Below are positions 10,574-28,433 of a stretch of 32,000 nt of DNA, in pieces (the first letter of the stretch is position 1; the number at the start of each line of letters is the position of its first letter). This stretch comes from Promethearchaeota archaeon (lineage in GTDB: Archaea > Asgardarchaeota > Lokiarchaeia > Sigyniarchaeales > Promethearchaeaceae), in NCBI GenBank assembly GCA_016933055.1, contig JAFGBS010000028.1, positions 120,001-152,000 of the forward strand. The letters run 5' to 3'. The notes beneath the pieces are model-generated. The model saw only the letters and a program-made list of their open reading frames with translations, did no database searches and was not told the origin of the DNA. The translations under genes were made by a program, and so were the position numbers.

Positions 10574-11212
10574 ATGCAAAAAGGATTAATGCATTATATT
10601 TATGGAAATGGTCCTGGAAAAACTAGGTCTTCATTTGGTATTGTTATTCGATCCATTGGACACAATCATAAACCCATTATTATTCAATTTCTCAAGCAGA
10701 GCAGTGATTACCCTGAAAATGAACGAGCTTATCTAGAACGCCTCTTAATTGATTTAAACGATCTTTTAGATAAATATAAAATAGAAAATGCACCTTCCAC
10801 ATCCTACCCAAAAGGATTTACATATGGAGAATATTTGGTATTCACAAAACTCTTGAAGGTTCCAGTTATTCAAATTGGTAAACCCACCTTTTTATTACCA
10901 CATCAAAAACCTTCTAAAGAATATTTAACAAAATTTAAATTCGGTATGGAATTAATCGAACGAATTTTAAATAGCGAAGTTTATCATTTGGTAGTATTAG
11001 ATGAGATAAATACCGCTGTAAAAAAGCAGTTGGTAGATTTAAATCAGTTAATTCATTTGTTGAGAAACCGTAGCCCACAAATTGAGGTTATATTGACAGG
11101 TAGGGAAAAAATTCCTGAATTGGTAGAGATTGCAGATTATGTTACTCAAATTGTGGAAGAGAAACATCCTTTTACAAAAGGAATACAAGCCCGAATAGGT
11201 GTTGAGTACTAA
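10574..11212 (+). CDS. cobO: Cob(I)yrinic acid a,c-diamide adenosyltransferase (CobO/BtuR/CobA type)
   Basis: YGNGPGKT P-loop variant, IIQFLK, LVVLDEIN, EVILTGR, ADYVT, KHPFTKGIQARIGVEY. Located next to B12 mutase genes. Confidence 0.85.
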   Translation: MQKGLMHYIYGNGPGKTRSSFGIVIRSIGHNHKPIIIQFLKQSSDYPENERAYLERLLIDLNDLLDKYKIENAPSTSYPKGFTYGEYLVFTKLLKVPVIQIGKPTFLLPHQKPSKEYLTKFKFGMELIERILNSEVYHLVVLDEINTAVKKQLVDLNQLIHLLRNRSPQIEVILTGREKIPELVEIADYVTQIVEEKHPFTKGIQARIGVEY

Positions 11213-11330
11213 TAATTCTCCTTCCCAAGTTTAATAAATAGATGATATCCGTTTATTAAATAAATATTAAGTAAAATAAACATCCCTTCATAAACTAATT
11301 GGCATAGAGATTTTAGTGAGGTTGAGATCT

Positions 11331-13004
11331 ATGGATGAAAATAAGGAAAAGAACATCCAAAAAGAATTGGAAAGATGGGAAAACACAACCGTCAAGAAAG
11401 TAATAGATAAATATCCATTATTTAAAAAATACTTCCGAAATCTATCAGATTATGATTCAAAAGCACTATATACCCCGTTGGATATTATGGACTTAAATTA
11501 TCTAAAAGATCTTGGATTTCCGGGTGAATATCCATTTACGCGACATGTTCAACCTACAGCATACCGTGGGAAATTATGGACAATGCGGCAATTTGCTGGT
11601 ATGGCTAGCGCTGATGAAACTAATAGACGTTTCAAATATCTAATTGAAAACGGATTAACTGGATTAAGCGTTGCATTCCATTTGCCCACAATTTATGGGT
11701 ATGAAAGTTGTGATTCTATGTCTACGGGAGAAGTGGGTAAAATCGGTGTAGCAATTGATACTGTAGAAGATATGGAAAAGTTGTTCGCTGGAATTGATCT
11801 TAGTAAAATATCCACTTCGATGACAATCAATGCTCCTGCTTCCATATTATTATCCATGTACTTAGTAGTCGGTGAAAAACAAGGCGTTCCATCTGAGAAA
11901 CTCACTGGAACCGTCCAGAATGATATCTTAAAAGAATATATTGCGCAAAAATCGTATATTTTTCCTCCGGAACCCTCGATGCGATTGATAATTGACACTA
12001 TCGAGTACTGTACTAAACATGTTCCGAAATGGAATACAATAAGCATTAGCGGTTATCATATACGTGAAGCAGGCTCCACCGCGGTTCAAGAACTCGCTTT
12101 TACTCTTGCTGACGGATTTGCCTATGTAGAAGCAGGAATTGAGCGGGGATTAGATGTTGATGCTTTTGCACCTCGTCTATCCTTTTTCTTCAATGCACAC
12201 AATGATTTTTTCGAGGAAATCGCAAAATATCGCGCAGCACGACGCATATGGGCAAAACGAATGAAAAACAAATATGGTGCAAAAAATCCGGATAGTTGGA
12301 AATTACGTTTCCATACACAAACTGCTGGAGTATCATTAACAGCGCAAGAACCCGAAAATAATATAGTAAGAGTTACCCTTCAAGCACTAGCTGCAGTGCT
12401 TGGTGGTACGCAATCCTTACATACCAATTCGTTCGATGAAGCTTTATGTTTACCTACAGAGAAAGCTGTTCGTATTGCTTTACGAACACAACAAATAATC
12501 GCTCATGAATCAGGTGCAACCAATACTATCGATCCACTCGCTGGTTCATACTATGTTGAAGCGTTAACAGATGAAATGGAAAGACAAGCCGAAGAATATT
12601 TTAAAAAAATAGAAGAATTGGGTGGAGTTATCCCGGCAATACGACAAAACTTTTTCCAGAGAGAAATTGCACGAGCTGCCTACCGATATCAGAAAGAAGT
12701 TGAAGCAAAAGAGCGTATCATTGTCGGCGTAAATAAGTATGTAACAGAAAGTGAACGCCCCGAAATTCTTTATATAGATGAGAAAGTTGAAGAAGAACAA
12801 TGTGAGAGATTAGAAAATACTAAAAAGAATCGGGATAGTGAGAAAACAACTAAAGCTCTTTCAATCTTAAAACAAAAAGCACGCACAGAAGAAAATCTTA
12901 TTCCATTTATACTGGATTGTGTACGAGCGTATGCATCTATAGGAGAGATAATTGGAGCTTTAAAAGAAGTTTGGGGTACGTATCGAGAAGATGCAATCTT
13001 TTAA
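11331..13004 (+). CDS. B12-dependent acyl-CoA mutase large subunit (methylmalonyl-CoA mutase family, isobutyryl-CoA-mutase-type specificity residues); probable ATG at 11331, ORF track start 11316
   Basis: PGEYPFTR, WTMRQFAG, GTVQNDILKEYIAQK, ISISGYHIREAG, SLHTNSFDEAL, DPLAGSYYVE. gtgaggt RBS-like sequence before 11331. Confidence 0.95.
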   Translation: MDENKEKNIQKELERWENTTVKKVIDKYPLFKKYFRNLSDYDSKALYTPLDIMDLNYLKDLGFPGEYPFTRHVQPTAYRGKLWTMRQFAGMASADETNRRFKYLIENGLTGLSVAFHLPTIYGYESCDSMSTGEVGKIGVAIDTVEDMEKLFAGIDLSKISTSMTINAPASILLSMYLVVGEKQGVPSEKLTGTVQNDILKEYIAQKSYIFPPEPSMRLIIDTIEYCTKHVPKWNTISISGYHIREAGSTAVQELAFTLADGFAYVEAGIERGLDVDAFAPRLSFFFNAHNDFFEEIAKYRAARRIWAKRMKNKYGAKNPDSWKLRFHTQTAGVSLTAQEPENNIVRVTLQALAAVLGGTQSLHTNSFDEALCLPTEKAVRIALRTQQIIAHESGATNTIDPLAGSYYVEALTDEMERQAEEYFKKIEELGGVIPAIRQNFFQREIARAAYRYQKEVEAKERIIVGVNKYVTESERPEILYIDEKVEEEQCERLENTKKNRDSEKTTKALSILKQKARTEENLIPFILDCVRAYASIGEIIGALKEVWGTYREDAIF

Positions 13005-13009
13005 GGAGG
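13005..13009 (+). promoter_or_regulatory. Shine-Dalgarno sequence for the mutase small subunit
   Basis: GGAGG lies 7 nt upstream of the ATG at 13017, immediately after the upstream stop codon. Confidence 0.6.
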
Positions 13010-13016
13010 AAAAAAT

Positions 13017-13418
13017 ATGTCAAATGAAAGAAAGATACGAGTAATTGTAGCAAAACCGGGATTAGATGGACATGACCGGGGAGCAAAAGTTGTTGCACAT
13101 GGATTAAAAGATGCAGGATTTGAAGTTATTTATACGGGACTTCATCAAACACCTGAGGATATCGTTCAAAGTGTCATTCAAGAGGATCCTGATGCATTAC
13201 TTTTATCATTACTTAGCGGAGCCCACAATAAACTCTTTACTGCAATCACTAAGCAGCTTGAAGAGCAAGGAATCGACGATGTATTAGTAATCGGAGGAGG
13301 AATAATACCAGATCAAGATATTCCTCATCTAAAAAAACATGGGGTCGAAGAAATATTCGGTCCGGGCACAGAAATTGATGAAATAGTCGAATATGTTAAG
13401 ACCCACTTAAAACGATGA
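13017..13418 (+). CDS. Acyl-CoA mutase small subunit, cobalamin-binding domain
   Basis: AKPGLDGHDRGAKVV (DxHxxG), LLSLLSGAH, GGGIIP, FGPGT. Confidence 0.95.
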   Translation: MSNERKIRVIVAKPGLDGHDRGAKVVAHGLKDAGFEVIYTGLHQTPEDIVQSVIQEDPDALLLSLLSGAHNKLFTAITKQLEEQGIDDVLVIGGGIIPDQDIPHLKKHGVEEIFGPGTEIDEIVEYVKTHLKR

Positions 13419-13434
13419 TGTTCAGGCTAAGGAT

Positions 13435-14472
13435 ATGCAAATCAACGTAACCGATTCTGAAATAGACGAACAAGTACACAAATTACGGGCAGGAGATCAA
13501 AGAGCGATTGCGAAGTTAATGACCTATGCTGAAATGAATCTATTTCTCGCTTCCCAAGTTATAAAAAAACTCTATAAATATACTGGAAATGCATACATAA
13601 TCGGCATTACGGGCGCTCCTGGGGTTGGAAAAAGTTCCTTAGTCAACCAGATGGCTGCATTCTATATTTCTGAGGGTCATAGAGTAGGGATCATTGCGGT
13701 AGATCCTACATCGCCATTTAGTGGCGGAGCCATTCTAGGTGATAGAATTCGAATGAAAAAGAGTTTTAGTCTCAAAGATGTGTTCATTCGATCTATGGCG
13801 AATCGTGGTCAAATGGGGGGTCTTGCACGGGCAACTAGGGACATGATTAAAATTTTGGATGCTGCGGGATATGAGATAATTCTCGTTGAAACTGTCGGTG
13901 TTGGACAAGATGAGATTGACATATTCAAGGCAGCTCATACATGCGTTGTCATAGTAGTTCCGGGGATGGGAGATGAAATCCAAGCAATAAAAGCGGGAAT
14001 TATGGAAATCACAGATGTATTTGTGGTGAATAAGATGGATTTATCTGGTGTAGATCGCACCATAATGGATCTAGAAACCACTCTTCAACTCACCCATAAC
14101 TCCAAACCAAAAAAACCAATTACGCCTGCTCAAGGATTATTTGTAAAGGTTAATAATTGGAAACCTCCAATTATAAAAACTAATGCAATAACGGGTGAAA
14201 ATATTCCCAAATTCATACAAAACATCCAAACACACCAAGATTTTCTTAAAAAAAATGATTTACTTCCTATAAAGAAACTAGCTGCATGCAAGAATGAAAT
14301 CATGGATATTATGAAATTCCAACTATACAAAAAAGTGGAAGATTATGTTTTCAAAAACACTGATGTGAATGATTTAATTGAAGGAATTATTGAGGGTGAT
14401 ATAGATCCCTATAGCATTTCAGAAGACATTTTAGCAAAATTTGTGAAAGAAGCAAGGATTTTAGACAAGTAA
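13435..14472 (+). CDS. meaB: MeaB/ArgK (MMAA) GTPase chaperone of B12 mutases
   Basis: GITGAPGVGKSS, AVDPTSPFSGGAILGDRIRM, FIRSMANRG, ETVGVGQDE, KAGIMEI, VVNKMD. Confidence 0.95.
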   Translation: MQINVTDSEIDEQVHKLRAGDQRAIAKLMTYAEMNLFLASQVIKKLYKYTGNAYIIGITGAPGVGKSSLVNQMAAFYISEGHRVGIIAVDPTSPFSGGAILGDRIRMKKSFSLKDVFIRSMANRGQMGGLARATRDMIKILDAAGYEIILVETVGVGQDEIDIFKAAHTCVVIVVPGMGDEIQAIKAGIMEITDVFVVNKMDLSGVDRTIMDLETTLQLTHNSKPKKPITPAQGLFVKVNNWKPPIIKTNAITGENIPKFIQNIQTHQDFLKKNDLLPIKKLAACKNEIMDIMKFQLYKKVEDYVFKNTDVNDLIEGIIEGDIDPYSISEDILAKFVKEARILDK

Positions 14473-14484
14473 TCGGGATTATTA

Positions 14485-15300
14485 ATGACTTCAGAAAAAA
14501 TCTTAAACGCAATCTCCAAAGTCATTCAGAGGGTAGAATCTGTACAAATTTACTCTAATACTTATTTTATTTTAGGGGCGGGACAGTTTGGTCGTATTGC
14601 ATTGGAATACGCTCAGAATCAGGATAGTAAGCCTACAATCTTAGTGATTGATAAAATTGATACTCCATTAGTGCATGAGTATCATAGACTTGCAGATGAA
14701 CATGAGCTCAATATTATATGGAATACCTCGAATGGTCGATTTTTTCTCCAAAAAGATGTAAAAAATCTTCCTTTCCTATTTTTATTCGGTTTTCCTGATT
14801 ATTTTATTCCTGCAATTCCCCTTCACGTACTTGCATTTCTTCTTCAAGAATTTCTTCAGTCTATTCATGCTGACATTCAAGTAAGAAATTCTATACCTCA
14901 TGACAAATGGAATATTATCTTAAATTCTATTCCCAAACAAGTCGTATTAGATGCTGATCCAAATAATGGTGTGATTCTCCTCTCATGGGTGAAAGAAGGT
15001 GAAATTTGTCCTCCTAATTGCATCGCACCAATTCGATTTTGCCCCCACCATAATCGAAAAAAACCATTTACAATCACGGAAATCGTTCGGAAAGTGTCCA
15101 TTCCTGACATTCTTAATCTTACTATTGAAAGTCACCAAGCAACAGCAGGATTAGGGATAATAAAAGGAATGGAGTTAAAGAATCTATTATTAACTTGTTT
15201 AATTCAACTCCAAAAGAAAATTGAGTCCAAGCACCATCTATTGTTTTTCGTTGCAACCACATGTAATTGTCACGGAGTTGTTAATGTTTTTTATATATGA
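14485..15300 (+). CDS. Uncharacterised protein with an N-terminal Rossmann-like motif and a Cys-rich C-terminus
   Basis: FILGAGQFG, PAIPLHV, CPPNC...CPHH, terminal TTCNCHGV. Starts 12 bp after meaB. Confidence 0.8.
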   Translation: MTSEKILNAISKVIQRVESVQIYSNTYFILGAGQFGRIALEYAQNQDSKPTILVIDKIDTPLVHEYHRLADEHELNIIWNTSNGRFFLQKDVKNLPFLFLFGFPDYFIPAIPLHVLAFLLQEFLQSIHADIQVRNSIPHDKWNIILNSIPKQVVLDADPNNGVILLSWVKEGEICPPNCIAPIRFCPHHNRKKPFTITEIVRKVSIPDILNLTIESHQATAGLGIIKGMELKNLLLTCLIQLQKKIESKHHLLFFVATTCNCHGVVNVFYI

Positions 15301-15816: not shown

Positions 15817-17556
15817 TTAATAAGAATTTGGTGGTAAAAATTCCTCGGGATCTGTGATAACATCAATTAATTGGACTCCTTTTTGATTATGCAATGATGA
15901 TTTAATAGCTTCATCTAATTGGCTTATAGTTTTAACTTGTTTGCCTTTAATTCCAAAAGCTTCTGCAATTTGCACGAAATTCGTATTTACACGATCTGTA
16001 TCATAATATCTTCTATTATATAGCATGGCTTGTCCAAATTTCACAAATCCAAGAGCGGAGTTATTTAATACCACGATCGTGCAATTTATCTCCTTTTGTA
16101 CTATGGTTTCCAAATCGGACAAACCACTATTCATTAGTCCCCCATCTCCGGTGAGAAGTACTAATTTTGGAGTAGGTTCACCATATGTGTCTTGAATTGC
16201 AATGCCGGTTCCTAAAAGTGCTCCTAATCCAAATCCAGTAGGACCAACTCCTCTCGGGGTTATAATCTTTCTGCCTAAACCCTTAACAGGAAAATAAGGC
16301 CCAATCCATCTAGAACTTGCACTCGCATCTGTCACTAAATAATCTTCTTCGGTAAAATATTGAGAAATGGAGTATAAAACCCTTTGTGGCTTAATAGGTT
16401 CTGAATCCATCCATTTAGCAGCATCTCTTTCCCAGTATTCCGTATGATCTTGTTTTAATTCCTCCAAATTTCTCTTTCTTTCCTTCATTAATGATTCTAA
16501 AGATTCTCTGTCTCTAGTTAATCCTTCGTCTTGTAATCGCCGGATAATCATATCTAGTGCAATTTTGGAATCCCCAACAACACCCCATGCGTTAAATGAT
16601 AATCCGATCTCTCCTGGATCTAAATCAATCTGAATTACCGGCATTTTAGAAGAGGGAATTTTGAAATTAGCAGTATCATCTTCGGTCATTCGATTACCTA
16701 TAATAATTAGCAGATCTGCAGTTCTTCGAATGAATTTATGATTGGGTTTTTCACCGAACAAACCCACTGTCCCAAAATAATAGGGATCTTCTTGCTGTAG
16801 GATGCCTTTCCCGGATATTGTAGAAAATACAGGAATTTGCAACATATCTGCCAGCTTTTTTATTTCTGTAAAAGCACCCGATGAAACTGCTTGTGATCCT
16901 GAAAAAATTGCCGGCTGTTTCGCTTCCCGAATCATTTGGACTGCATTTTCGATTTCATTCGCCGCTGGAGCAATACTGCAACCTTCGATGGCACAAGATC
17001 CTCCTTTTTTTGTAGAAATATACCTCTTTAATGGTAATTCTTTGGAATTCATAACATCTTCAGGAATAATTAAAGCAGTAGGCCCGGGTTTTCCATTTTT
17101 AGCCATTCTTATTGCGTAATTTACATAACGTGGGACTTGGTCAGGGATATAAATAGATTGACAAGTTTTTGTTATAGGTTCAATTACCCCTTGAACATCA
17201 ATATCATGTGGTACATTGCGAAGTTTGTGTTCTTTTTTAATGACTCCAATAATAGCTAAAAGTGGAGTGCCAGATCCTCTGGCTTCTGAAATTGCAACCG
17301 GAAAGTTCATGGAACCTGCAGCACCAGCATCACAAACTCCTAAACCTCCTGTTACACGACTATATGCATCCGCTGCAAAAGCTGCAGTACGTTCATCATT
17401 TACAAGTATATGGTCTATTCCATCTGTTTGTAATATTCCATCATAGAATGCAAGAGTATGACCATCTGGAATACCAAATACTTTAGAAACTCCGTAATCT
17501 TTCAGCATTCGAGTAATTCCCATTCCCACTCTGACTTTATCTTCATTTTTTTCCAT
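15817..17556 (-). CDS. Thiamine-diphosphate enzyme, acetolactate-synthase-like superfamily, substrate unknown; probable ATG at 17556
   Basis: VFGIPDG, NDERTAAFAADAYSR (catalytic Glu), central domain TISGKG, TPP motif GDGG...VVLNN. Confidence 0.9.
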   Translation of the reverse strand: MEKNEDKVRVGMGITRMLKDYGVSKVFGIPDGHTLAFYDGILQTDGIDHILVNDERTAAFAADAYSRVTGGLGVCDAGAAGSMNFPVAISEARGSGTPLLAIIGVIKKEHKLRNVPHDIDVQGVIEPITKTCQSIYIPDQVPRYVNYAIRMAKNGKPGPTALIIPEDVMNSKELPLKRYISTKKGGSCAIEGCSIAPAANEIENAVQMIREAKQPAIFSGSQAVSSGAFTEIKKLADMLQIPVFSTISGKGILQQEDPYYFGTVGLFGEKPNHKFIRRTADLLIIIGNRMTEDDTANFKIPSSKMPVIQIDLDPGEIGLSFNAWGVVGDSKIALDMIIRRLQDEGLTRDRESLESLMKERKRNLEELKQDHTEYWERDAAKWMDSEPIKPQRVLYSISQYFTEEDYLVTDASASSRWIGPYFPVKGLGRKIITPRGVGPTGFGLGALLGTGIAIQDTYGEPTPKLVLLTGDGGLMNSGLSDLETIVQKEINCTIVVLNNSALGFVKFGQAMLYNRRYYDTDRVNTNFVQIAEAFGIKGKQVKTISQLDEAIKSSLHNQKGVQLIDVITDPEEFLPPNSY

Positions 17557-17641
17557 AACTAGTTTTACTTTGGTGGCTTCAAAAATATTATTCATGGAAA
17601 TTATAATGTCAGATTTATTAGTTCGAAAACGTATCAATTAA

Positions 17642-18160: not shown

Positions 18161-18597
18161 TTAAAGTACCTCAAATCTATCAAGGGGGATTTTTAATTTC
18201 TAAAATCTATCAACCCAGTAGAAAAATCACCAACTAAAACTTGAAATCAATAATATCTTTATTCCTACTGGTCATGGACGAATCCTATCTTTTTTGTGGA
18301 AAGAAGATAATATTCTAATTAAGAAAATAGTAGAAAAGATGGGATTATCGAAATCTACCGTGACATCCATCTTAGATCGATTAAAGGAAGATGGACACCT
18401 TCTTCGCAACATTTTACCTCTCTAAACGAGAGACTTATGTAGTATAAACGGAGAAAAACTAAGAGCTCCACCATATATATAAAAAAATTTCCGAGGAGAT
18501 GATAGATTAATTTTATCACATCTTTAATGAGCAAGATATTGACGATTTTGAGCAAAAATTAAGACATTTATTAAACAACACATATCCCACAACTTAA
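18157..18597 (+). pseudogene. MarR-family regulator pseudogene
   Basis: ATGA-coupled to the upstream gene. Stitched translation: QGGFLISKIYQ / GHGRILSFLWKEDNILIKKIVEKMGLSKSTVTSILDRLKEDGHLLR / SKRETYVV*TEKN*ELHHIYKKISEEMID*FYHIFNEQDIDDFEQKLRHLLNN. TAA stops at 18235, 18445, 18460 and 18508, plus two frameshifts (about 18240 and 18420). Confidence 0.8.
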
Positions 18598-18945: not shown

Positions 18946-19605
18946 ATGAAATATTTCTTAGATAGTGGAAAAATCGAGGAAATTCGATATGCGTATAAAA
19001 ACTGGGCAATTGATGGAGTTACTACCAATCCAAAACATATAAAAAATTCAGGGAAGACCTTCAAAACCGTACTCAAGGAACTTGCTGATGAATTTAAGGA
19101 TACCGAATTTCCAATTTCTGTCGAAATCAACCCTCACCTTGAAAAAGCAGAGGACATGATAAAAGAAGCGAAAGAGTACTCCAAGTTGTCTTCGAATTTT
19201 GTGATAAAAGTACCTTGTACAGAGCAAGGATTGATAGCTGCAAAAATACTTGAAGAAGAGGGTGTGCGTGTAAATGTTACATTAATCTTTTCTGCAAGTC
19301 AAGCAATTCAAGCAGCCCGCATTAACGCAACATTTATCTCACCATTTATTGGATGGCAGGAAGCAAGTGGAGTCGATTGCGCAACTTTGTTAGAAGATAT
19401 AATGCTAATAGTTGAAAATTACGGATTTTCGAGTGAAGTTATCGTCGCAGCTCTGAGGAACGGAAAGCAAATCGTTGAAGCTGCACGATTGGGAGCAGAC
19501 ATTGTTACAGCTGGTTTTGAGGTTTACAATGATTCCTTCGATCATCCGTTTACAGATCGGGGTCTAAAAATCTTCCAAGACGCATGGGATTCAACACCTC
19601 ATTGA
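18946..19605 (+). CDS. sqvA: Transaldolase, probable 6-deoxy-6-sulfofructose transaldolase (SqvA/SftT-like)
   Basis: D6, GVTTNP, E60, Schiff-base K88 (VIKVP) and F134 mark a transaldolase rather than FSA. SPFIGW and VAALRNG replace the usual SPFVGR and ASIR phosphate site. Closely resembles Bacillus SqvA as I recall it (MKYFLDS..EEIRYAY.NWAIDGVTTNP.H, FPISVEINPHL, VAALRNGKQIV). Confidence 0.8.
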   Translation: MKYFLDSGKIEEIRYAYKNWAIDGVTTNPKHIKNSGKTFKTVLKELADEFKDTEFPISVEINPHLEKAEDMIKEAKEYSKLSSNFVIKVPCTEQGLIAAKILEEEGVRVNVTLIFSASQAIQAARINATFISPFIGWQEASGVDCATLLEDIMLIVENYGFSSEVIVAALRNGKQIVEAARLGADIVTAGFEVYNDSFDHPFTDRGLKIFQDAWDSTPH

Positions 19606-19649
19606 GTATATTTTTGAAAGCAAATTTTTATAAAAATAACTCAATAAAT

Positions 19650-20195
19650 CTAATCCACATCACGTTTATAAGGAAACGGAGTATTCTGTAGACGTGTCAT
19701 GCATGGTGCGGATGGAGATCTCTTTTTTTGCACTTTTAGACGATTCTCTTTACGTACTTTCGCTTCCTCATATCTTCTTTTTTCTTCATTCGTTTCCGGG
19801 ATAATTTTCGGGACTTTCTTTGGGTTATCCTTTTCATCGAGTGCAACAAAAGTAAGATAGGCCGAATTCACATGGACAATTTTTCCGCTATTCAAACACT
19901 GGGCTTCCACACGAACTCCGATCTCCATACTTGAAGTACCCGTATAATTCACACTTGCCATTGCATGAACTACATTTCCTACAAATACGGGGCTAAGAAA
20001 ATCGAATCGATCGGCCGAAGCGGTTACCACGTTGCTAAGTGCGTGACGAGATGCTGCGATATAGGCTACTTGATCCACCATCTTCATTATTTTTCCACCT
20101 TGAACGTTTCCATGCACATTAGCATGTTCTGGCTCCATTAATTCCATGATCGATGATTTTGACTCAGTAACTGTGCGAGATTCTGACTGTACCAT
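19650..20195 (-). CDS. Hotdog-fold acyl-CoA thioesterase (YciA-like)
   Basis: HANVHGNVQGGKIMKMVD, ASVNYTGTSSMEIGVRV, YLTFVALD, RRYEEAKVRKE. Confidence 0.9.
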   Translation of the reverse strand: MVQSESRTVTESKSSIMELMEPEHANVHGNVQGGKIMKMVDQVAYIAASRHALSNVVTASADRFDFLSPVFVGNVVHAMASVNYTGTSSMEIGVRVEAQCLNSGKIVHVNSAYLTFVALDEKDNPKKVPKIIPETNEEKRRYEEAKVRKENRLKVQKKRSPSAPCMTRLQNTPFPYKRDVD

Positions 20196-20259
20196 AGAGA
20201 TTCCATTGTGTAATGGATTTTAACTGTTTTCCCCATTAAAAATAGTGTGGGCACCAGCA

Positions 20260-20838
20260 TTACTTCCATACCCATTTCATCCCGCAATATTCACAAGTTG
20301 TCGCATAGGGTTGAATTGGTGCTCCGCAAAAGGAACAATAAACTGGTGAATGACTCTTTTCGCTTTTTATACCTCCTTGGATATTTTTACTTTCTTCTAA
20401 TGCCTTTTTCGCTTTCGCTCTAATCGCTTCTGCTTGTTTATTAGGTTCCGTATCCTTCTTTACAACCTGATAAACAACAATAGCTGATACAGCAATAACA
20501 AAAATCACCACGAAAGCAATGAGTGGTCCTTTTTCCCATGTTGGAGATTCATGAATTGAAGAACCAAAGGAGCTAACAGAGTCAATTGCACTGATAGTAA
20601 TAGCAAAAAAGATTACAAAAACAAAACAACCAAATATAGCACCTATGATACCATCATAATTTTCGTTATTTTCTAATACATCCGCATAACATAGAGGGCA
20701 CATGACATATTCAGTGGAATGCGAATGGCTACCACTTTCTCTCTCATATCGGCATTCCAAACAGATACACTTACCACAAGTATCGCATTTTGAAACTGCA
20801 GTACGATCCTTATGAAAATAACAATTTAACTCTCCCAT
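20260..20838 (-). CDS. B-box-like zinc finger / two-TM / zinc-ribbon protein
   Basis: CYFH....CDTCGKCICLEC...CPLC, two hydrophobic helices, C-terminal CSFC...CEYC. Confidence 0.75.
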   Translation of the reverse strand: MGELNCYFHKDRTAVSKCDTCGKCICLECRYERESGSHSHSTEYVMCPLCYADVLENNENYDGIIGAIFGCFVFVIFFAITISAIDSVSSFGSSIHESPTWEKGPLIAFVVIFVIAVSAIVVYQVVKKDTEPNKQAEAIRAKAKKALEESKNIQGGIKSEKSHSPVYCSFCGAPIQPYATTCEYCGMKWVWK

Positions 20839-21034
20839 TATGAAAGGATCTGGGTAATCAACTATTTTAAATTTCGCTCTAAAGGATCAAATCTTATAGC
20901 TCGTTGGAAAGAATTCTGAGACTTTCTTTAAACCTATGTATTTAGTATCAATTTATCCCAAAACTGGTATCTCTTTTTCCATAAATAAATCGTAGAAATT
21001 ATAGCAGATACTGCAAAAAATAAAAAAAATAGAA

Positions 21035-22543
21035 TCATTCTTGTAGTGATTTTAGTCTGAGTAAAATTACGCCGTGTCCGGGAACCTTAGATGCAAATCC
21101 CCCATTATATATCCCTAAAGTTTTTTGTCTCCATAAATCCCTAACTACATAGTCACCTTTTATTTTTAATTGATCCCATTTTACATATAGATTGTGAGTT
21201 CTTCGGCTTCGATTGAATAATCCAACGATATTTGTCCCATCTTCCATTTTTTTTGCCCAGACCTCGAAATGGGGAACTATCTTTTTCACGATTCTCCCTG
21301 CTTGTTTCCCTAAAGGATCTTGATTAACTTCAAGAACCTCATCATTGGTGAGAAGATTAAGACTAAATTCATCCATACTAGGGATATCACAGCTTAATAA
21401 CAGTGGGGCGCACAATAAACACCATAAACTCATTTGTGAATATTGCTCATCAGCTGTTAGATGAGTTGAAAAAAAATCAGAAAATCTGTGTGGATGTCTA
21501 GTATTTCCTAGTTGAAGCATATCGGGATCATTCCAATGACCTGGTCCTGCAAAAATTCCCCATTTATTCTGGGAAAAACCTATTCTTGCTACTATTCTCC
21601 AATTATCCCGTATATCTCCTGTTGTTCTCCAAAGATTCGCGAGTTCTGACCATTTATCACCTAATTTATAAGGTGCTTTATTGGATAGAGAATATACAAT
21701 ATCTCGTCCACCCTCCAATAATGCTTTCTGCATTGCTTCTACATGTTCTATATCATTTGGATTCCAATCATATTTAAGGTAGTCAAAACCCCATTCTGAG
21801 AATTGTTTTGCGTCAATATGCGACATGTCTATACCAAAGAATCGCACTCGCTTTCGTAAAGCATTCTCCTTTCCAAAAATTTGATTATTTTCTTGTCGAT
21901 ACTTTTCCTCTACAATCCACTTTGAATAATCTACTTGAGAGTTTGGGATTGAACCCCCGCGGTAGCCCGCATAACTCCCTACCCATGGAGTGGAATAAAT
22001 ACCGACTTTTAAACCCAAAGAATGGACATAATCGCACATGCCTTTCATATCAGGAAACTTTGAATTGGGCTGTAAAGCTTCACCTGGTTTTCGCTCTCCT
22101 TGCCAACAATCGTCTATAACAACATATGTCCACCCGTGATCGATCAATCTCTTCTCTACCATCGCTTTGGCAATATGTTCAACCTTTTCTTGCGTAATCC
22201 AAAGACTGTAAACGTACCAACTATTCCATCCCATTGGTGGAGTTAAACAGATTCTATGCCCAATTTTAATGGTAAATTGTCGAGTATCTCTTCCTATATC
22301 GTTTGAAACAATTAATGTGGTTTCATACTCTCCCATCTCATATTTTTGACCAGTTATAACACCGGTATTTTGATCCACTGAAAATTCTTCTGGAAGATTC
22401 AATACCTCATATTTTAGTGGTCTTTTACCAGTAGCAGGAATCTTAAATATAATTGGTGACATAGGACGGACTCCAAACACTTTAGGACCCGTTATTTTCG
22501 GTTGTGGACCTGATTTAGGAGTTAAAACATACTCTTCATTCAT
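21035..22543 (-). CDS. GH27 alpha-galactosidase with an N-terminal Ig-like domain, no signal peptide; probable ATG at 22543
   Basis: TPPMGWNSW, VIDDCW, YLKYDW (nucleophile Asp), WRTTGDI (acid/base Asp), WNDPDML, NQDPLG. Confidence 0.9.
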   Translation of the reverse strand: MNEEYVLTPKSGPQPKITGPKVFGVRPMSPIIFKIPATGKRPLKYEVLNLPEEFSVDQNTGVITGQKYEMGEYETTLIVSNDIGRDTRQFTIKIGHRICLTPPMGWNSWYVYSLWITQEKVEHIAKAMVEKRLIDHGWTYVVIDDCWQGERKPGEALQPNSKFPDMKGMCDYVHSLGLKVGIYSTPWVGSYAGYRGGSIPNSQVDYSKWIVEEKYRQENNQIFGKENALRKRVRFFGIDMSHIDAKQFSEWGFDYLKYDWNPNDIEHVEAMQKALLEGGRDIVYSLSNKAPYKLGDKWSELANLWRTTGDIRDNWRIVARIGFSQNKWGIFAGPGHWNDPDMLQLGNTRHPHRFSDFFSTHLTADEQYSQMSLWCLLCAPLLLSCDIPSMDEFSLNLLTNDEVLEVNQDPLGKQAGRIVKKIVPHFEVWAKKMEDGTNIVGLFNRSRRTHNLYVKWDQLKIKGDYVVRDLWRQKTLGIYNGGFASKVPGHGVILLRLKSLQE

Positions 22544-22657
22544 GGAACTCACTTTAATGCATAAATAGCTCACTTATCTAGAGTAAGTAGGCGAGAGTAG
22601 TTATTAATTGATGCAATGAGTAATTCATAAGAATGGTGCCACAAAGATTACCATATA

Positions 22658-23974
22658 ATGAAACAATTAGTAAAAATTGGAGTGCTGTGTTTTGCTCGGA
22701 AGACCTTCGATTTTAACGCTGCATTTGATATATATAAAAAAATTCAAACAGATTTGAAAAGAATTTCACAAGTAGAGTGGAGATTTATACCCGAATTAGT
22801 GATAGAGGAAGATGAAGCAATTGCAGCTGCGCTAGAATTGAAATCAAAGAACATAGATGCGGTCATTTGCATTAGTGGCACTTTTCATTTGGGGCAGCTT
22901 ATTCTCCAATTCGATCGAATTCTACAAAAACCTCTACTTCTATGGGGTTTATATGAATTACCATATGATGGGGGTAGAATCCGGTTAAATTCTGTGTGTG
23001 GGCTTAATCTTGATGCCTCTAATCTTTATAAATCCGGTATACATAATTTTCATTATAAAATCGGGCCAAATATTGATGAAGATTGGATAGATGCAATCCG
23101 CGTCATCAAAGCTTTCACATCTTCCAAAATTGGGATTATTGGTCATCACGCATCGGGATTTTTCAATATCGATGTTGATGAGCCCATCTTATTCAAGGAA
23201 ACTGGCGTATTATTGCAACAGTATGAATTAAAACAAGTTTGGGATGCTGAAGTATCCGATATTGACGTAAACAAACGACGAGAACAAATAAAGGAACTTT
23301 TTGATATTAGTGGTATTTCTGACGATCAAATAAATAAGGTCGCAGATCTAACTGCAAAATTTGCTGCTTTTATGGATAAACAAGGGTTACACGCACTTGC
23401 AGTTCGGTGCTGGCCTGAATTTGCTGCAGAATTTGGCATAAGTCCATGTGCTTCAATGTCCATTTTGCAATCGGAACATTACATATTAGGATGTGAGGGA
23501 GATGTGCTTGGTCTAATGTCTATGCTTGCCCAAAAAGCGATTGGCGGAGAGACTCCGTTCTTGACTGATTTTTCTCAAGTAGATTTTGAACAAAATTATG
23601 CATTGTTATGGCACTGTGGGGTGGCTGCGTGTAATCTTTGGGATGGAAAATGCGTTAGATCGTTGGATTCTTATTTTGCTGGAGGTAAAGGTGTTACAGC
23701 TGATTTTGTGATGAAACCTGGTAAAGTATCCCTCTTAAGGATAGACTCGGTCGGAGAAGAATTTCGCATATTCTTACAAAGAGCAGAAGGATTACCTATG
23801 CAAAAAGAATTGAAAGGTACATATCTTAAAACCCGTTTTAAGGATAATATCCGTGTAGTCTTGGATAAAATTATTACAAATGGAATTGCTCATCATATAG
23901 CCCTATCATATGGGAACTTCATTCGTCCATTTGAAATTCTAGCAAAAATAAAGAAATGGCAAATTGTACAATAA
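22658..23974 (+). CDS. L-fucose/L-arabinose-isomerase-family sugar isomerase, candidate sulfoquinovose isomerase (SqvD/SftI-like)
   Basis: Metal ligands in CEGD, TDF and AHH, plus AVRCWPEF, WHCG and an N-terminal ARKTFD. Family assignment is firm; substrate is inferred from context. Confidence 0.8.
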   Translation: MKQLVKIGVLCFARKTFDFNAAFDIYKKIQTDLKRISQVEWRFIPELVIEEDEAIAAALELKSKNIDAVICISGTFHLGQLILQFDRILQKPLLLWGLYELPYDGGRIRLNSVCGLNLDASNLYKSGIHNFHYKIGPNIDEDWIDAIRVIKAFTSSKIGIIGHHASGFFNIDVDEPILFKETGVLLQQYELKQVWDAEVSDIDVNKRREQIKELFDISGISDDQINKVADLTAKFAAFMDKQGLHALAVRCWPEFAAEFGISPCASMSILQSEHYILGCEGDVLGLMSMLAQKAIGGETPFLTDFSQVDFEQNYALLWHCGVAACNLWDGKCVRSLDSYFAGGKGVTADFVMKPGKVSLLRIDSVGEEFRIFLQRAEGLPMQKELKGTYLKTRFKDNIRVVLDKIITNGIAHHIALSYGNFIRPFEILAKIKKWQIVQ

Positions 23975-25786: not shown

Positions 25787-27142
25787 TTAAGCTTTTTGGA
25801 ATAAATCCACTTCCTTCCTCTTCGCATCGAATTTTGCACTTTTTTTGCCTGAGATCAATCCATTAAAAGTAATTACAAACCATTCTAGTGATCCTACATA
25901 GTGGATTTTTTCCCACCCGATATTTAGTAATCCCCATAATAATGCAAGAATAGCGCCAATAATGATAACTCCGCCGAGACTGTCCCTCCACCCGGTGATA
26001 AATGGTATCTGATCCAATAATAATCCCAATGCAATCGCAGTCATTCCTTCAAAAATGTATATACTCATTGAGAGATTACCCATTCTGGCAAAAAACCGAG
26101 CGTTTCTCATGTTTATTTTCTGCCACTTTGGCGTAGCAAAATCAAAAAGTGCTAACCCCATAGAAAAGAATAAAAAACATACCCCTAATTGAGCTAAGTG
26201 ACGCCAATAGTCGTCCATAATTGCTATTGGAATAGTATCGTATATAAGACCTGGATGAATTCCTCCTCTTCGAATAATACCAAACAATCCCAGAGTAGTA
26301 AAAATAACTAACATAGATAATGTATAAGCATAAATTTTTCTTCGGGATTCATTTCTCGCAAGTGCTATTCCCACAATAGCTCCATAACATGCAAATGCGC
26401 TAACAGGAAAGATAGGAAAATTATCATAGGCTAGTAATGCAAGAGGCCATGCTAATATAGGATGCCCATTTATTAGTAATGATTCTACAAACGGTGCCAG
26501 AAAAATGCGAATTGGTATTGCAAGTAATAAAATGATGGTACCTGTTATAAATAATACCATATATACACTATTCCAATTTCTACGACCTCTTTTAATGAAT
26601 CGTGAGGAAGCAATACTAAGAATTTGTGGAACCAAGTAAGAATTAATCCCCAAAATCGTTAATGACGAACTACTAACTAACCAAAAATTTGGGATTGTTT
26701 TAGTATTGTATAAAATGGTGTAGCTATAAATTTCAGAAAGATCAGGCCATGTTCCTGTTCGTAATGCAAAATATAACATTCCCGAGTCCGCACTGAAAAA
26801 TACTCGAAAAAGAAAATTCAATGAAATCAAGAGCACGCATGCGATGAGACCCGAGAATACTAATTGTCTCGGTTTGTTTACTTCCGTATCTACGCGTTTA
26901 TAAAACATAAACGCGTTTACCGCACCCAAAATTGCTGAATAAATGCCCCCTATAGTTACAAAAAATATAAGAAAAGACATAAATGGGTCTGTTGCTTCAG
27001 TTCCAGATTGTTCTGTTTCTGCTCCGGTCCATAAATGCAATCCCGTATGAAGAATAATGAGGAATAACATAGCAAAACCCCTGTAAACATCCATTAATTT
27101 TATCCTTGCAAAATTCGCCATCGTGTTCTTCACCACTATCAT
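25787..27142 (-). CDS. Multi-pass membrane protein, DUF1624/HGSNAT-like acyltransferase fold
   Basis: N-terminal MDVYRGFAM...LH, many TM helices, C-terminal GNLSMSIY and GSLEW. Confidence 0.7.
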   Translation of the reverse strand: MIVVKNTMANFARIKLMDVYRGFAMLFLIILHTGLHLWTGAETEQSGTEATDPFMSFLIFFVTIGGIYSAILGAVNAFMFYKRVDTEVNKPRQLVFSGLIACVLLISLNFLFRVFFSADSGMLYFALRTGTWPDLSEIYSYTILYNTKTIPNFWLVSSSSLTILGINSYLVPQILSIASSRFIKRGRRNWNSVYMVLFITGTIILLLAIPIRIFLAPFVESLLINGHPILAWPLALLAYDNFPIFPVSAFACYGAIVGIALARNESRRKIYAYTLSMLVIFTTLGLFGIIRRGGIHPGLIYDTIPIAIMDDYWRHLAQLGVCFLFFSMGLALFDFATPKWQKINMRNARFFARMGNLSMSIYIFEGMTAIALGLLLDQIPFITGWRDSLGGVIIIGAILALLWGLLNIGWEKIHYVGSLEWFVITFNGLISGKKSAKFDAKRKEVDLFQKA

Positions 27143-27209: not shown

Positions 27210-28433
27210 TTAGATTTTTATTATAATATTGAATTTATCAAGTGGCCATACAATTGCCCACATTAAAATCGTCGGAATGATTCCAACAAGCAACATATCC
27301 AATAAGGGACCATACCATGTAGGCAAACCAATTAAATTGAAAGATATGAGTATCATGTCCTTATAGATCACTTCATTAATGATCATCGATAGAAGGAAGA
27401 CTAGTAACATATTTTTACCTAATGGTGTCAACAAGGGAATCTTAAAATTACGTTGCCCCATTGCATAGAATGTAAATATCATCAATGAACTAAAACCAAT
27501 AGCCATTGTTGCTAAAGACATGTTCACTTTATGGTGATCTGCCCAATTGATAAACCATGACAAATAGGATAATACCATAAAACCTATCGCTAAAGGTAAA
27601 ACTTGTTTTTTCCAACCTTCTTCTTTTATCGTTCCATCTGGTTTGAAAATCCACCCTGCTACCCCAGCAGCTATGATTCCAATCTCTATATGACCGACAA
27701 GGGGCAGTAATGTGTCCAATAGATTACTTGTGAATAGAGGTGCTAACCCTCCATGAGTTGATGTGACATACCAAAGTGTTTCAGTTATTATCATTAATCC
27801 AAATCCAGTCCAGAATCGGATATTGCCATTCTGCATCAAGATGGAGATCAATGCCGCAAATAAGCCTGCCCAGGCAATATTAGCTAGAGTTCCTGTTAAA
27901 AACGCTTTTTCGAAATCAAAGGGAGGACCATCTAGGAAAAATTCAATTAGCACATGTAGTATGGATAAAGCAAAAATTCCTGCTACTCGAATACCCGTAT
28001 GTGTCCACACACGCCATTTTTCTTCACTCTTTTGTTTTCTCTTCATTACTGCAAATGCTTGCATAAATCCTACTAAAAAGATGAAGATTTGTTGCCCAAT
28101 ATCGACTAACGTGATGATCTTAGGAATCCCATCCCCAAAATTAATATATTTATATCCATGATTTACCATTGGGGGTAAGATCGGTAAGATACCTCCGCTA
28201 GGATTACCGCTAAAAGCATATGCAAACGTTTGTACAATAAAAAGCACGATCACAATTCCTCTAAATTGGTCCAACCATTCAAAACGAATTCGTTCCCGAC
28301 GTTTTGGTTTCTCTTTGCCTGGTTTTTTGGGTGGTTTTTCTTTCTCAACAATTATAGGAGGTTTCTGATCTTCCTCTACTTCCAAGGGTGCTCCTACCAT
28401 CATACTTTCACTCATAATATAACACCACATCAC
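27210..28433 (-). CDS. Multi-pass membrane protein, HGSNAT-like (start probably MSESMM or later)
   Basis: RFEWLDQFRG, ITLVD....IFIFLVG, PLGKNMLLVF, terminal LDKFNIIIKI. Confidence 0.7.
   Translation of the reverse strand: MMWCYIMSESMMVGAPLEVEEDQKPPIIVEKEKPPKKPGKEKPKRRERIRFEWLDQFRGIVIVLFIVQTFAYAFSGNPSGGILPILPPMVNHGYKYINFGDGIPKIITLVDIGQQIFIFLVGFMQAFAVMKRKQKSEEKWRVWTHTGIRVAGIFALSILHVLIEFFLDGPPFDFEKAFLTGTLANIAWAGLFAALISILMQNGNIRFWTGFGLMIITETLWYVTSTHGGLAPLFTSNLLDTLLPLVGHIEIGIIAAGVAGWIFKPDGTIKEEGWKKQVLPLAIGFMVLSYLSWFINWADHHKVNMSLATMAIGFSSLMIFTFYAMGQRNFKIPLLTPLGKNMLLVFLLSMIINEVIYKDMILISFNLIGLPTWYGPLLDMLLVGIIPTILMWAIVWPLDKFNIIIKI

Follow-up and report, generated by a model that had tools for sequence, protein, structure and literature searches.

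The locus described here raises the question of whether an Asgard archaeon could live on sulfoquinovose (SQ) by means of a transaldolase-type sulfoglycolysis. All known pathways of SQ degradation are bacterial, and none has been characterised in archaea, according to a 2026 review (PMC12890257). The window, by which we mean the whole stretch of 32,000 nucleotides that was analysed, covers positions 120001-152000 of contig C2 in a genome assembly (G000) of 3.76 Mb in 36 contigs, which is 91% complete with 3.3% contamination. Two of its genes are of central interest. They lie on the same strand, 3,053 bp apart, with three minus-strand genes between them (a thioesterase, a Zn-ribbon protein and a glycoside hydrolase of family GH27), and both are open reading frames at the following coordinates:

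18946-19605, plus strand: TAL_FSA-family gene of 219 amino acids, a sulfofructose-transaldolase orthologue (SftT/SqvA type) on the strength of its PDB match, pocket residues and position in a tree; it is the single PF00923 match in G000 and the only TAL_FSA-family gene of the genome

22658-23974, plus strand: gene of 438 amino acids for an aldose-ketose isomerase with the AraA/FucI fold, predicted from fold and genomic context to convert SQ to sulfofructose

It is suggested here that these genes serve SQ catabolism as the dispersed core of a sulfo-TAL/sulfo-SFT pathway, a reading to which we give a probability of about 0.72, and that the organism probably feeds on SQ. The preliminary description of this DNA had drawn the same inference, and support for it comes from the clade to which the transaldolase belongs, from the linkage of the genes in relatives and from a GH188 homologue elsewhere in the genome. 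The Asgard origin of the window, also supposed at that time, is well supported at the sequence level because the closest homologues of both proteins sit in Asgard-labelled metagenome-assembled genomes (MAGs). The labels concerned are Promethearchaeota, Hodarchaeota, Hermodarchaeota, Thorarchaeota and Lokiarchaeota; a genome of the same order as G000, G065 (= L006), carries the label Hodarchaeota.

The transaldolase

When the whole PDB was searched with phmmer, the best matches of the transaldolase were the structures of the sulfofructose transaldolase (SF-TAL) of Priestia (Bacillus) megaterium, BmSF-TAL (8bc2, 8bc3 and 8bc4; E 1e-93, 316 bits, residues 1-217), which bears out the closeness to Bacillus SqvA that the preliminary description had claimed. 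The best ordinary transaldolase in that search was the TalC of Thermotoga (1vpx), at 168 bits, and on the fsa/talC model TIGR00875 (fsa_talC_mipB) the protein scores 193 bits, below the curated cut-off of 245.95. It is 64.7% identical to a Peribacillus orthologue, which itself scores 444 bits to BmSF-TAL. Along its whole length it is about 65% identical to the SftT/SqvA enzymes of P. megaterium and of Bacillus aryabhattai SOS1, and it belongs to the same clade.

The catalytic residues of BmSF-TAL are D6, K89 and E61, the sugar is oriented by N111 and S133, and a 'WAR' motif that includes W138 orients the sulfonate (Borusak et al. 2024, PMC11659671, quoting the structure paper). All of these are kept in the alignment with the window transaldolase, as catalytic D6, K88 and E60, sugar-orienting N110 and S132, and sulfonate-orienting W137, A169 and R171, and F134 is present as well; translation and alignment confirmed each of the residues D6, K30, E60, K88, F134, W137 and A169 that had been claimed beforehand. 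The likeness to SftT/SqvA extends over the Asp/Lys/Glu and Asn/Ser sets to Trp/Ala/Arg, where phosphate is bound by Arg/Ser/Arg in ordinary enzymes. At the matching columns, S/T30, R137, S169 and R171 are found in ordinary TalC-type transaldolases, among them six of Asgard origin. What the window enzyme shares with TalC/FSA proteins (TIGR00875; Thermotoga 1vpx, Thermoplasma 3s0c) is the fold of a decamer-type short transaldolase, the Schiff-base Lys and a Phe134 rather than the Tyr of the aldolases. It differs from them in its low identity (only 39-46%), in the replacement of Arg137 by Trp, Ser169 by Ala and Ser/Thr30 by Lys, and in falling below the family cut-off.

A maximum-likelihood tree of 59 sequences splits the SF-TAL clade from ordinary TalC, including the six Asgard sequences, by a branch of length 2.26 with support of 100/100. 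Placement in such a tree had been set beforehand as a test, and the window transaldolase branches inside the SqvA/SftT clade, within an archaeal subclade (94/95) whose sister is a bacterial group containing the Peribacillus orthologue of BmSF-TAL. The archaeal SF-TALs are nested among bacterial ones, and Lactobacillaceae, Planctomycetota and Bacillaceae take basal positions on a weakly supported backbone (88/66, 86/60). This topology suggests that the archaeal genes could have been acquired from bacteria, the direction being subject to that weak backbone support. The transaldolase of a SAR324-labelled MAG (L005, JANQGX010000038.1) falls among the archaeal sequences of this subclade, with 71% identity to that of the window. 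Beside it are a GH188-like gene and one for an SftI-like isomerase of the bacterial type (310 bits), and the placement of this transaldolase could reflect either transfer from archaea back to bacteria or an error of binning.

The isomerase

The preliminary description had placed a gene of the fucose isomerase family about 3 kb downstream of the transaldolase. A search of the PDB by sequence gave no match for this protein even at E 1, and Pfam returned a weak match to Fucose_iso_C. An AlphaFold2 (AF2) model of it, with a predicted local distance difference test (pLDDT) value of 91.4, was compared with known structures by Foldseek; the template modelling (TM) score was 0.87 with L-arabinose isomerase and about 0.8 with L-fucose isomerase. 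Judged by this modelled fold, the 438-residue protein is an aldose-ketose isomerase of the L-fucose/L-arabinose isomerase superfamily, in agreement with the family named earlier. The metal ligands had been called intact: E254, E280, H319 and H412/H413 are invariant in 24 homologues and are candidate ligands. The ratio of nonsynonymous to synonymous substitution rates (dN/dS) of the isomerase, measured against its relative in locus L054, is 0.064, a sign of strong purifying selection.

Gene context and co-occurrence in relatives

The surroundings of the transaldolase were surveyed in 41 species-representative loci that encode a relative of it, nearly all of them in archaeal MAGs and mostly in Asgard-labelled ones. 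In 22 of these loci the gene directly downstream of the transaldolase is an isomerase orthologue (56-66% identity), and in 17 the next gene after the isomerase encodes a YihQ-type GH31. The GH31 of relatives reaches 793 bits on the YihQ model, for which the cut-off is 553, and 630 bits to the E. coli sulfoquinovosidase (SQase) 5aed. Many of the loci also contain a reductase of the HIBADH family, to which the sulfolactaldehyde (SLA) reductase YihU belongs, an auxin-efflux-carrier-type permease of a family that is also present in the Peribacillus cluster, and several GPH-type symporters. In comparison with the bacterial sulfo-SFT pathway (PMC7491151, PMC11968277), the loci of the relatives, when taken together, have its full composition.

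Asgard operons in which transaldolase, isomerase and YihQ-type GH31 stand together (L008, L010, L011, L023, L042 and others) are compact, often with the HIBADH reductase and the permease, and their transaldolases (66-73% identical to that of the window) have the same Lys/Trp/Ala/Arg pocket; their isomerases show the 56-66% identity given above. The sub-clade of the window differs from them in that three genes separate the pair, GH27 is the partner of the isomerase, there is no GH31 and a GH188 lies elsewhere. In the GH31 of one such operon (L008:10028-12001) the KRxxW motif is kept, which we take to be the sulfonate-binding Arg and Trp by the numbering of E. coli YihQ, and alignment to the SftG of E. 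rectale (8r56) reveals Phe for Tyr in the DIGGY stretch.

The pattern of occurrence was followed through 201 Asgard genomes, where transaldolases at least 65% identical to that of the window were counted as the SF-TAL type and those at 39-46% as the ordinary type. Nine genomes, G000 included, have the SF-TAL type, about 58 have the ordinary type only and 132 have no transaldolase; both types are present in two genomes. The isomerase orthologue is found in all nine SF-TAL genomes and in only 11 of the 201 in total, and a YihQ-type GH31 is found in all eight SF-TAL genomes other than G000. Two genomes of the same order as G000, G171 and G135, have an isomerase orthologue (62% identity) and no transaldolase of any type, and G171 has a YihQ-type GH31 in addition. 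It is possible that these two feed sulfofructose into another downstream route.

A candidate entry enzyme

As the preliminary description had remarked, no SQase, mutarotase or SLA dehydrogenase is present within the window. A search of the whole of G000, at its 91% completeness, found no YihQ-type GH31, the best GH31 being 27% identical with 225 bits on the YihQ model. The SF-TAL clusters of Peribacillus and SAR324 contain a gene of the Gfo/Idh/MocA family that is GH188-like, and when this gene was used in a tblastn search against all of G000 it led to a gene 53-55% identical on a second contig, at C17:813044-814291. The search for an SQase elsewhere in the genome, as proposed earlier, was in this way successful for GH188. 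In the PDB the C17 protein matches FlSqgA (E 7e-60) and ArSqgA (E 9e-57), with other Gfo/Idh/MocA proteins at about 1e-15, and it aligns over the full length with the GH188 SqgA enzymes of Flavobacterium (8qc2, 8qc8) and Arthrobacter (8qc3, 8qc5, 8qc6). Unlike these it is archaeal, and its gene is outside the window and unlinked to those of the transaldolase and isomerase.

The catalytic and sulfonate-contact residues of GH188 have been named by Kaur et al. 2023, and once the deposited chain's 13-residue offset in numbering is allowed for, K107, Y136, E189, H193 and H321 are found to be kept in the C17 homologue, as are the sulfonate contacts R166, L170 (backbone) and K172. Only two of the 201 Asgard genomes have a GH188 homologue, one of them being G000, which is the sole SF-TAL genome without a YihQ-type GH31. 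The presence of GH188 and absence of GH31 in G000 match the complementary distribution of GH31 and GH188 SQases that was described in the GH188 paper, where homologues in 'a small number of archaea' were also mentioned (Kaur et al. 2023). Contigs C2 and C17 are alike in composition, with a GC content of 0.348 and 0.352 respectively and a tetranucleotide correlation (r) of 0.996. Near the end of C17, at a distance of about 2.7 kb from GH188, is a phage-integrase-family gene (L064:13017-14060), and because of its closeness the GH188 gene may lie on a mobile island.

Organisation of the locus

In close relatives, whose transaldolases are 77-84% and isomerases 72-82% identical to those of the window, the order of genes is MarR, (sulfotransferase), transaldolase, MFS transporter, thioesterase, (old yellow enzyme), and GH27 divergent from the isomerase. 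The upstream synteny common to them comprises methylmalonyl-CoA mutase genes, a thiamine pyrophosphate (TPP) enzyme and a PNPOx-like gene. Besides the transaldolase and isomerase, the window has the following features in this region:

18237-18407, plus strand: remnant of a MarR-family regulator, found by tblastn with the MarR of L054

19650-20195, minus strand: 4HBT-family thioesterase (Pfam 4HBT), a syntenic passenger

20260-20838, minus strand: Zn-ribbon protein of 192 amino acids (Pfam Zn_ribbon matches below cut-off), a syntenic passenger

21035-22573, minus strand: GH27 alpha-galactosidase-like gene (Pfam Melibiase_2 and Melibiase_C), probably starting from the Met codon at 22543

The MarR of L054 (146 amino acids) matches the window at residues 28-84 only, that is, over 57 residues with 58% identity, and the local open reading frame is of 43 amino acids. 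The thioesterase and its counterpart at this position in L054 are 82% identical, and a thioesterase adjoins the pair in L068 as well; L066/L067 have a Zn-ribbon gene of 216 amino acids at the same position as that of the window. The genes for the MFS transporter, the sulfotransferase and the old yellow enzyme are absent from the window locus in comparison with L054.

GH27 is transcribed divergently from the isomerase, and this divergent pair recurs in the contigs of four relatives (L054, L066/L067 and L068). The motifs DDCW, LKYD and WNDPDM are present in the GH27 protein, no signal-peptide-like N-terminus was apparent by eye, and its best PDB matches are the putative alpha-galactosidases 4nzj and 4ogz, at about 248 bits. 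Its dN/dS of 0.087 indicates purifying selection; for the transaldolase and thioesterase dS was saturated, so no dN/dS is given for those two. GH27 was considered as the missing SQase and rejected on its alpha-galactosidase-like motifs and best solved matches, and such a role is unnecessary given GH188. That GH27, as a cytoplasmic enzyme, has replaced YihQ at this locus, either as a new sulfosugar glycosidase or, more modestly, as part of a thylakoid-glycolipid module coupling the breakdown of digalactosyl-glycerol and sulfoquinovosyl-glycerol, seems to us unlikely. A connection of GH27 with digalactosyl-glycerol, which like sulfoquinovosyl-glycerol is an alpha-linked head group of thylakoid lipids, is speculative.

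A 14-nucleotide element, GTAATTCATAAGAA, is located at 22620-22633 of the window, about 25-38 nucleotides upstream of the isomerase start, and is kept with 0-2 changes at the same position in L054, L066, L067 and L068. Its conservation in sequence and position suggests that GTAATTCATAAGAA is probably a promoter or operator element. No copy of the element was found ahead of either the transaldolase or GH188, and its eight near-matches across the genome follow no pattern.

Proposed pathway

In the pathway that we propose, SQ glycosides such as sulfoquinovosyl glycerol would be imported, possibly by one of the many GPH-type symporters, and cleaved by the NAD-dependent GH188 homologue encoded on C17. 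The isomerase would then convert SQ to 6-deoxy-6-sulfofructose, from which the transaldolase, by way of a Schiff base on Lys88, would pass the C1-C3 unit to glyceraldehyde-3-phosphate. The fructose-6-phosphate so formed could enter glycolysis, and the sulfolactaldehyde released would be reduced or oxidised and exported. We infer each of these substrates and products, as well as the specificity of the isomerase and the joint action of three unlinked genes, from what was computed: the orthology of the transaldolase, the conservation of its pocket, the fold of the isomerase, gene pairing in relatives, co-occurrence and the intact active site of GH188.

For the remaining steps G000 offers generic candidates. 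One HIBADH-family gene beside a sulfatase matches the YihU model with 133 bits, where the cut-off is 348. The genome also encodes one aldose epimerase, two permeases of the TauE family and three aldehyde dehydrogenases, the last at about 30% identity. The search for an SLA dehydrogenase or reductase, which the preliminary description had called for, therefore yielded candidates of this generic kind and no dedicated enzyme in the 91%-complete genome, in which no dedicated sulfonate exporter was found either. There are 43 matches to MFS_2/GPH sugar symporters in G000 (for example C16:184484-185713, C22:132403-133653 and C9:20073-21371), and an expansion of this size in an archaeal genome of 3.76 Mb suggests a glycoside-scavenging lifestyle.

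Evidence against SQ catabolism and alternative explanations

Several observations weigh against SQ catabolism as the function of these genes. The first of them concern the isomerase. Its only NCBIfam match is SftI (NF048012), at 218 bits under an equivalog cut-off of 700, and it is about 25% identical to the SftI-like genes of the bacterial clusters. On this model 288-310 bits are reached by the isomerases of bacterial SF-TAL loci, and 79-200 bits by Asgard paralogues whose genomes lack SF-TAL. We rejected the SftI score as proof of identity, since unlinked Asgard paralogues, at 170-200 bits, score nearly as high. Because 218 bits is barely above them, it is the genomic context on which the SQ role of the isomerase rests, and SQ is a substrate predicted from that context for a protein outside the curated SftI equivalog. 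Of the earlier assignment to SqvD/SftI, what holds is that the isomerase travels with SF-TAL and a YihQ-type SQase in relatives; membership by score does not.

A second group of adverse observations concerns the arrangement of the genes and the steps around them. The conserved neighbour of the isomerase in this sub-clade is GH27, not an SQase. The MFS transporter next to the transaldolase is gone and MarR is only a fragment, unlike in the close relatives. The pathway genes do not form an operon in G000, as had been recognised from the outset, and no shared upstream motif links them. Neither the cluster-type reductase (best 32% identity) nor the efflux-carrier permease has an orthologue in the 91%-complete G000, which has no Mem_trans family gene. 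The bacterial sulfo-SFT clusters (Eubacterium rectale sftAGXITRE, Peribacillus L034 and SAR324 L005) likewise combine an SQase, an isomerase and a transaldolase, and they add a reductase or dehydrogenase, an exporter and a GPH importer (PMC7491151, PMC11968277). A GH188-like gene and SF-TAL occur in one cluster in L034 and L005, the same combination that G000 has over two contigs; G000 departs from these clusters in the scattering of its genes, in the divergent branch of its isomerase and in SftX, since no DUF4867 (SftX) homologue was found in it.

The remaining point is the one residue at which the transaldolase pocket departs from that of BmSF-TAL. Position 30 is Lys in the window enzyme (NPKH) and Arg in BmSF-TAL, a difference the preliminary description had pointed out. 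The BmSF-TAL pocket is said to have been described by Snow et al. in 2023 (Structure) as 'Arg-Trp-Arg', with the first Arg in the NPRH motif. Of 159 sequences of the family, 136 have Lys at position 30, 18 have Arg and three have Asn, Lys being the majority state of the archaeal branch. Lys30 is found too in a Lactobacillaceae locus (L037) with GH31-like, SftI-like and GPH-type neighbours. Because Lys is in the majority in the family, including archaeal loci with a complete cluster, Lys30 would appear to be a conservative change within normal family variation and not a defect. The other differences from BmSF-TAL are the archaeal host and the position of the gene outside any pathway operon.

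It is also conceivable, if improbable, that the pair acts on some other C6-modified hexose derived from algal or phototroph glycans, with the substrate supplied by GH27. Such a role would fit the retention of the GH27-isomerase pair in the relatives' contigs, the sulfatase, GH2 and GH4 genes around the clusters of other Asgard loci, the sulfotransferase beside the transaldolase in L054 and an isomerase that is not a curated SftI member. It is harder to reconcile with a transaldolase pocket that equals that of the sulfonate-specific enzyme residue for residue, except for Lys in place of Arg, with the YihQ-type SQase above the family cut-off that is the third gene in most Asgard loci, or with the intact sulfonate contacts of the G000 GH188. 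Transaldolases, moreover, need the D-threo configuration at C3/C4, which galacto-derived ketoses lack.

The possibility that the locus is a decaying remnant, in which the genes are intact and the route has stopped after loss of a transporter, regulator, reductase and exporter, is likewise a slight one. The transaldolase, isomerase and GH188 are all full length with every key residue, and the isomerase is under strong purifying selection. The reduced MarR and the MFS transporter missing in comparison with L054/L055 are what such decay would leave behind, as is the lack of reductase and permease orthologues and of a YihQ-type GH31; in a genome that is 91% complete, however, absences are no proof, and the generic candidates (HIBADH, the aldehyde dehydrogenases, TauE, the aldose epimerase and the GPH-type matches) could fill the places concerned.

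That the gene is instead a general transaldolase for the interconversion of sugar phosphates, with an isomerase unrelated to it, would suit its status as the sole TAL_FSA gene of the genome and the fact that bacterial SF transaldolases yield fructose-6-phosphate or sedoheptulose-7-phosphate and so bind sugar phosphates, but this is very improbable given that no transketolase was found in the 91%-complete G000, leaving no non-oxidative pentose-phosphate pathway to serve, that two thirds of the sampled Asgard genomes manage without a transaldolase, that housekeeping-type Asgard enzymes keep Arg137 and Ser169, and that two genomes hold both types while the SF-TAL type co-occurs with the isomerase in nine cases of nine. 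A pentose-phosphate role is unlikely because this is the only transaldolase and there is no transketolase in evidence. For the same reasons, and with 132 of the 201 Asgard genomes having no transaldolase, it is accessory rather than housekeeping and behaves as a gene acquired with a pathway.

Novelty and significance

If SQ catabolism is indeed the function of these genes, archaea would join the SQ part of the sulfur cycle in sediments, and SQ would become a cheap and selective candidate growth substrate for Asgard archaea, which are hard to grow. The natural Lys-for-Arg pocket variant and the divergent isomerase branch would also be of use to enzymology. The data suggest that sulfoglycolysis of the transaldolase type recurs in a minority of Asgard archaea (about nine of the 201 sampled species genomes), and in some MAGs labelled Bathyarchaeota as well. 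The window represents a second archaeal configuration, with dispersed genes and with GH188 in place of GH31 as the entry enzyme. No literature on SQ catabolism or sulfoglycolysis in Asgard archaea was found in a search whose coverage left out subscription journals. On archaea and sulfoquinovose together it returned only papers on glycan biosynthesis, the GH188 remark quoted above and a note on GH188 in Hikarchaeia. The pathway itself is known; what is new here is the divergent isomerase, the Lys pocket variant and the dispersed layout with a GH188 entry enzyme.

Other features of the window

No RNA dataset is listed with the window DNA, which is evidence neither way on its expression. The TPP enzyme at 15817-17637 was considered as a sulfoacetaldehyde acetyltransferase and rejected, its best matches being acetolactate-synthase models with no Xsc model in the best 25 listed. 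Further upstream, at 10574-15300, is a methylmalonyl-CoA mutase operon for an ATP:corrinoid adenosyltransferase, the mutase large subunit, a B12-binding subunit and MeaB; a gene for an AF_1314_C-domain protein accompanies it, and the operon is syntenic with L054 and L055. Two minus-strand genes downstream of the isomerase, at 25787-27142 (451 amino acids) and 27210-28433 (407 amino acids), are without a Pfam or NCBIfam match, and the relative L066 has an unannotated gene of 446 amino acids at the position corresponding to this pair, downstream of a B3_4 gene. The window DNA is present in a sediment metagenome, possibly the one from which it came, and in part in a hot-spring metagenome.

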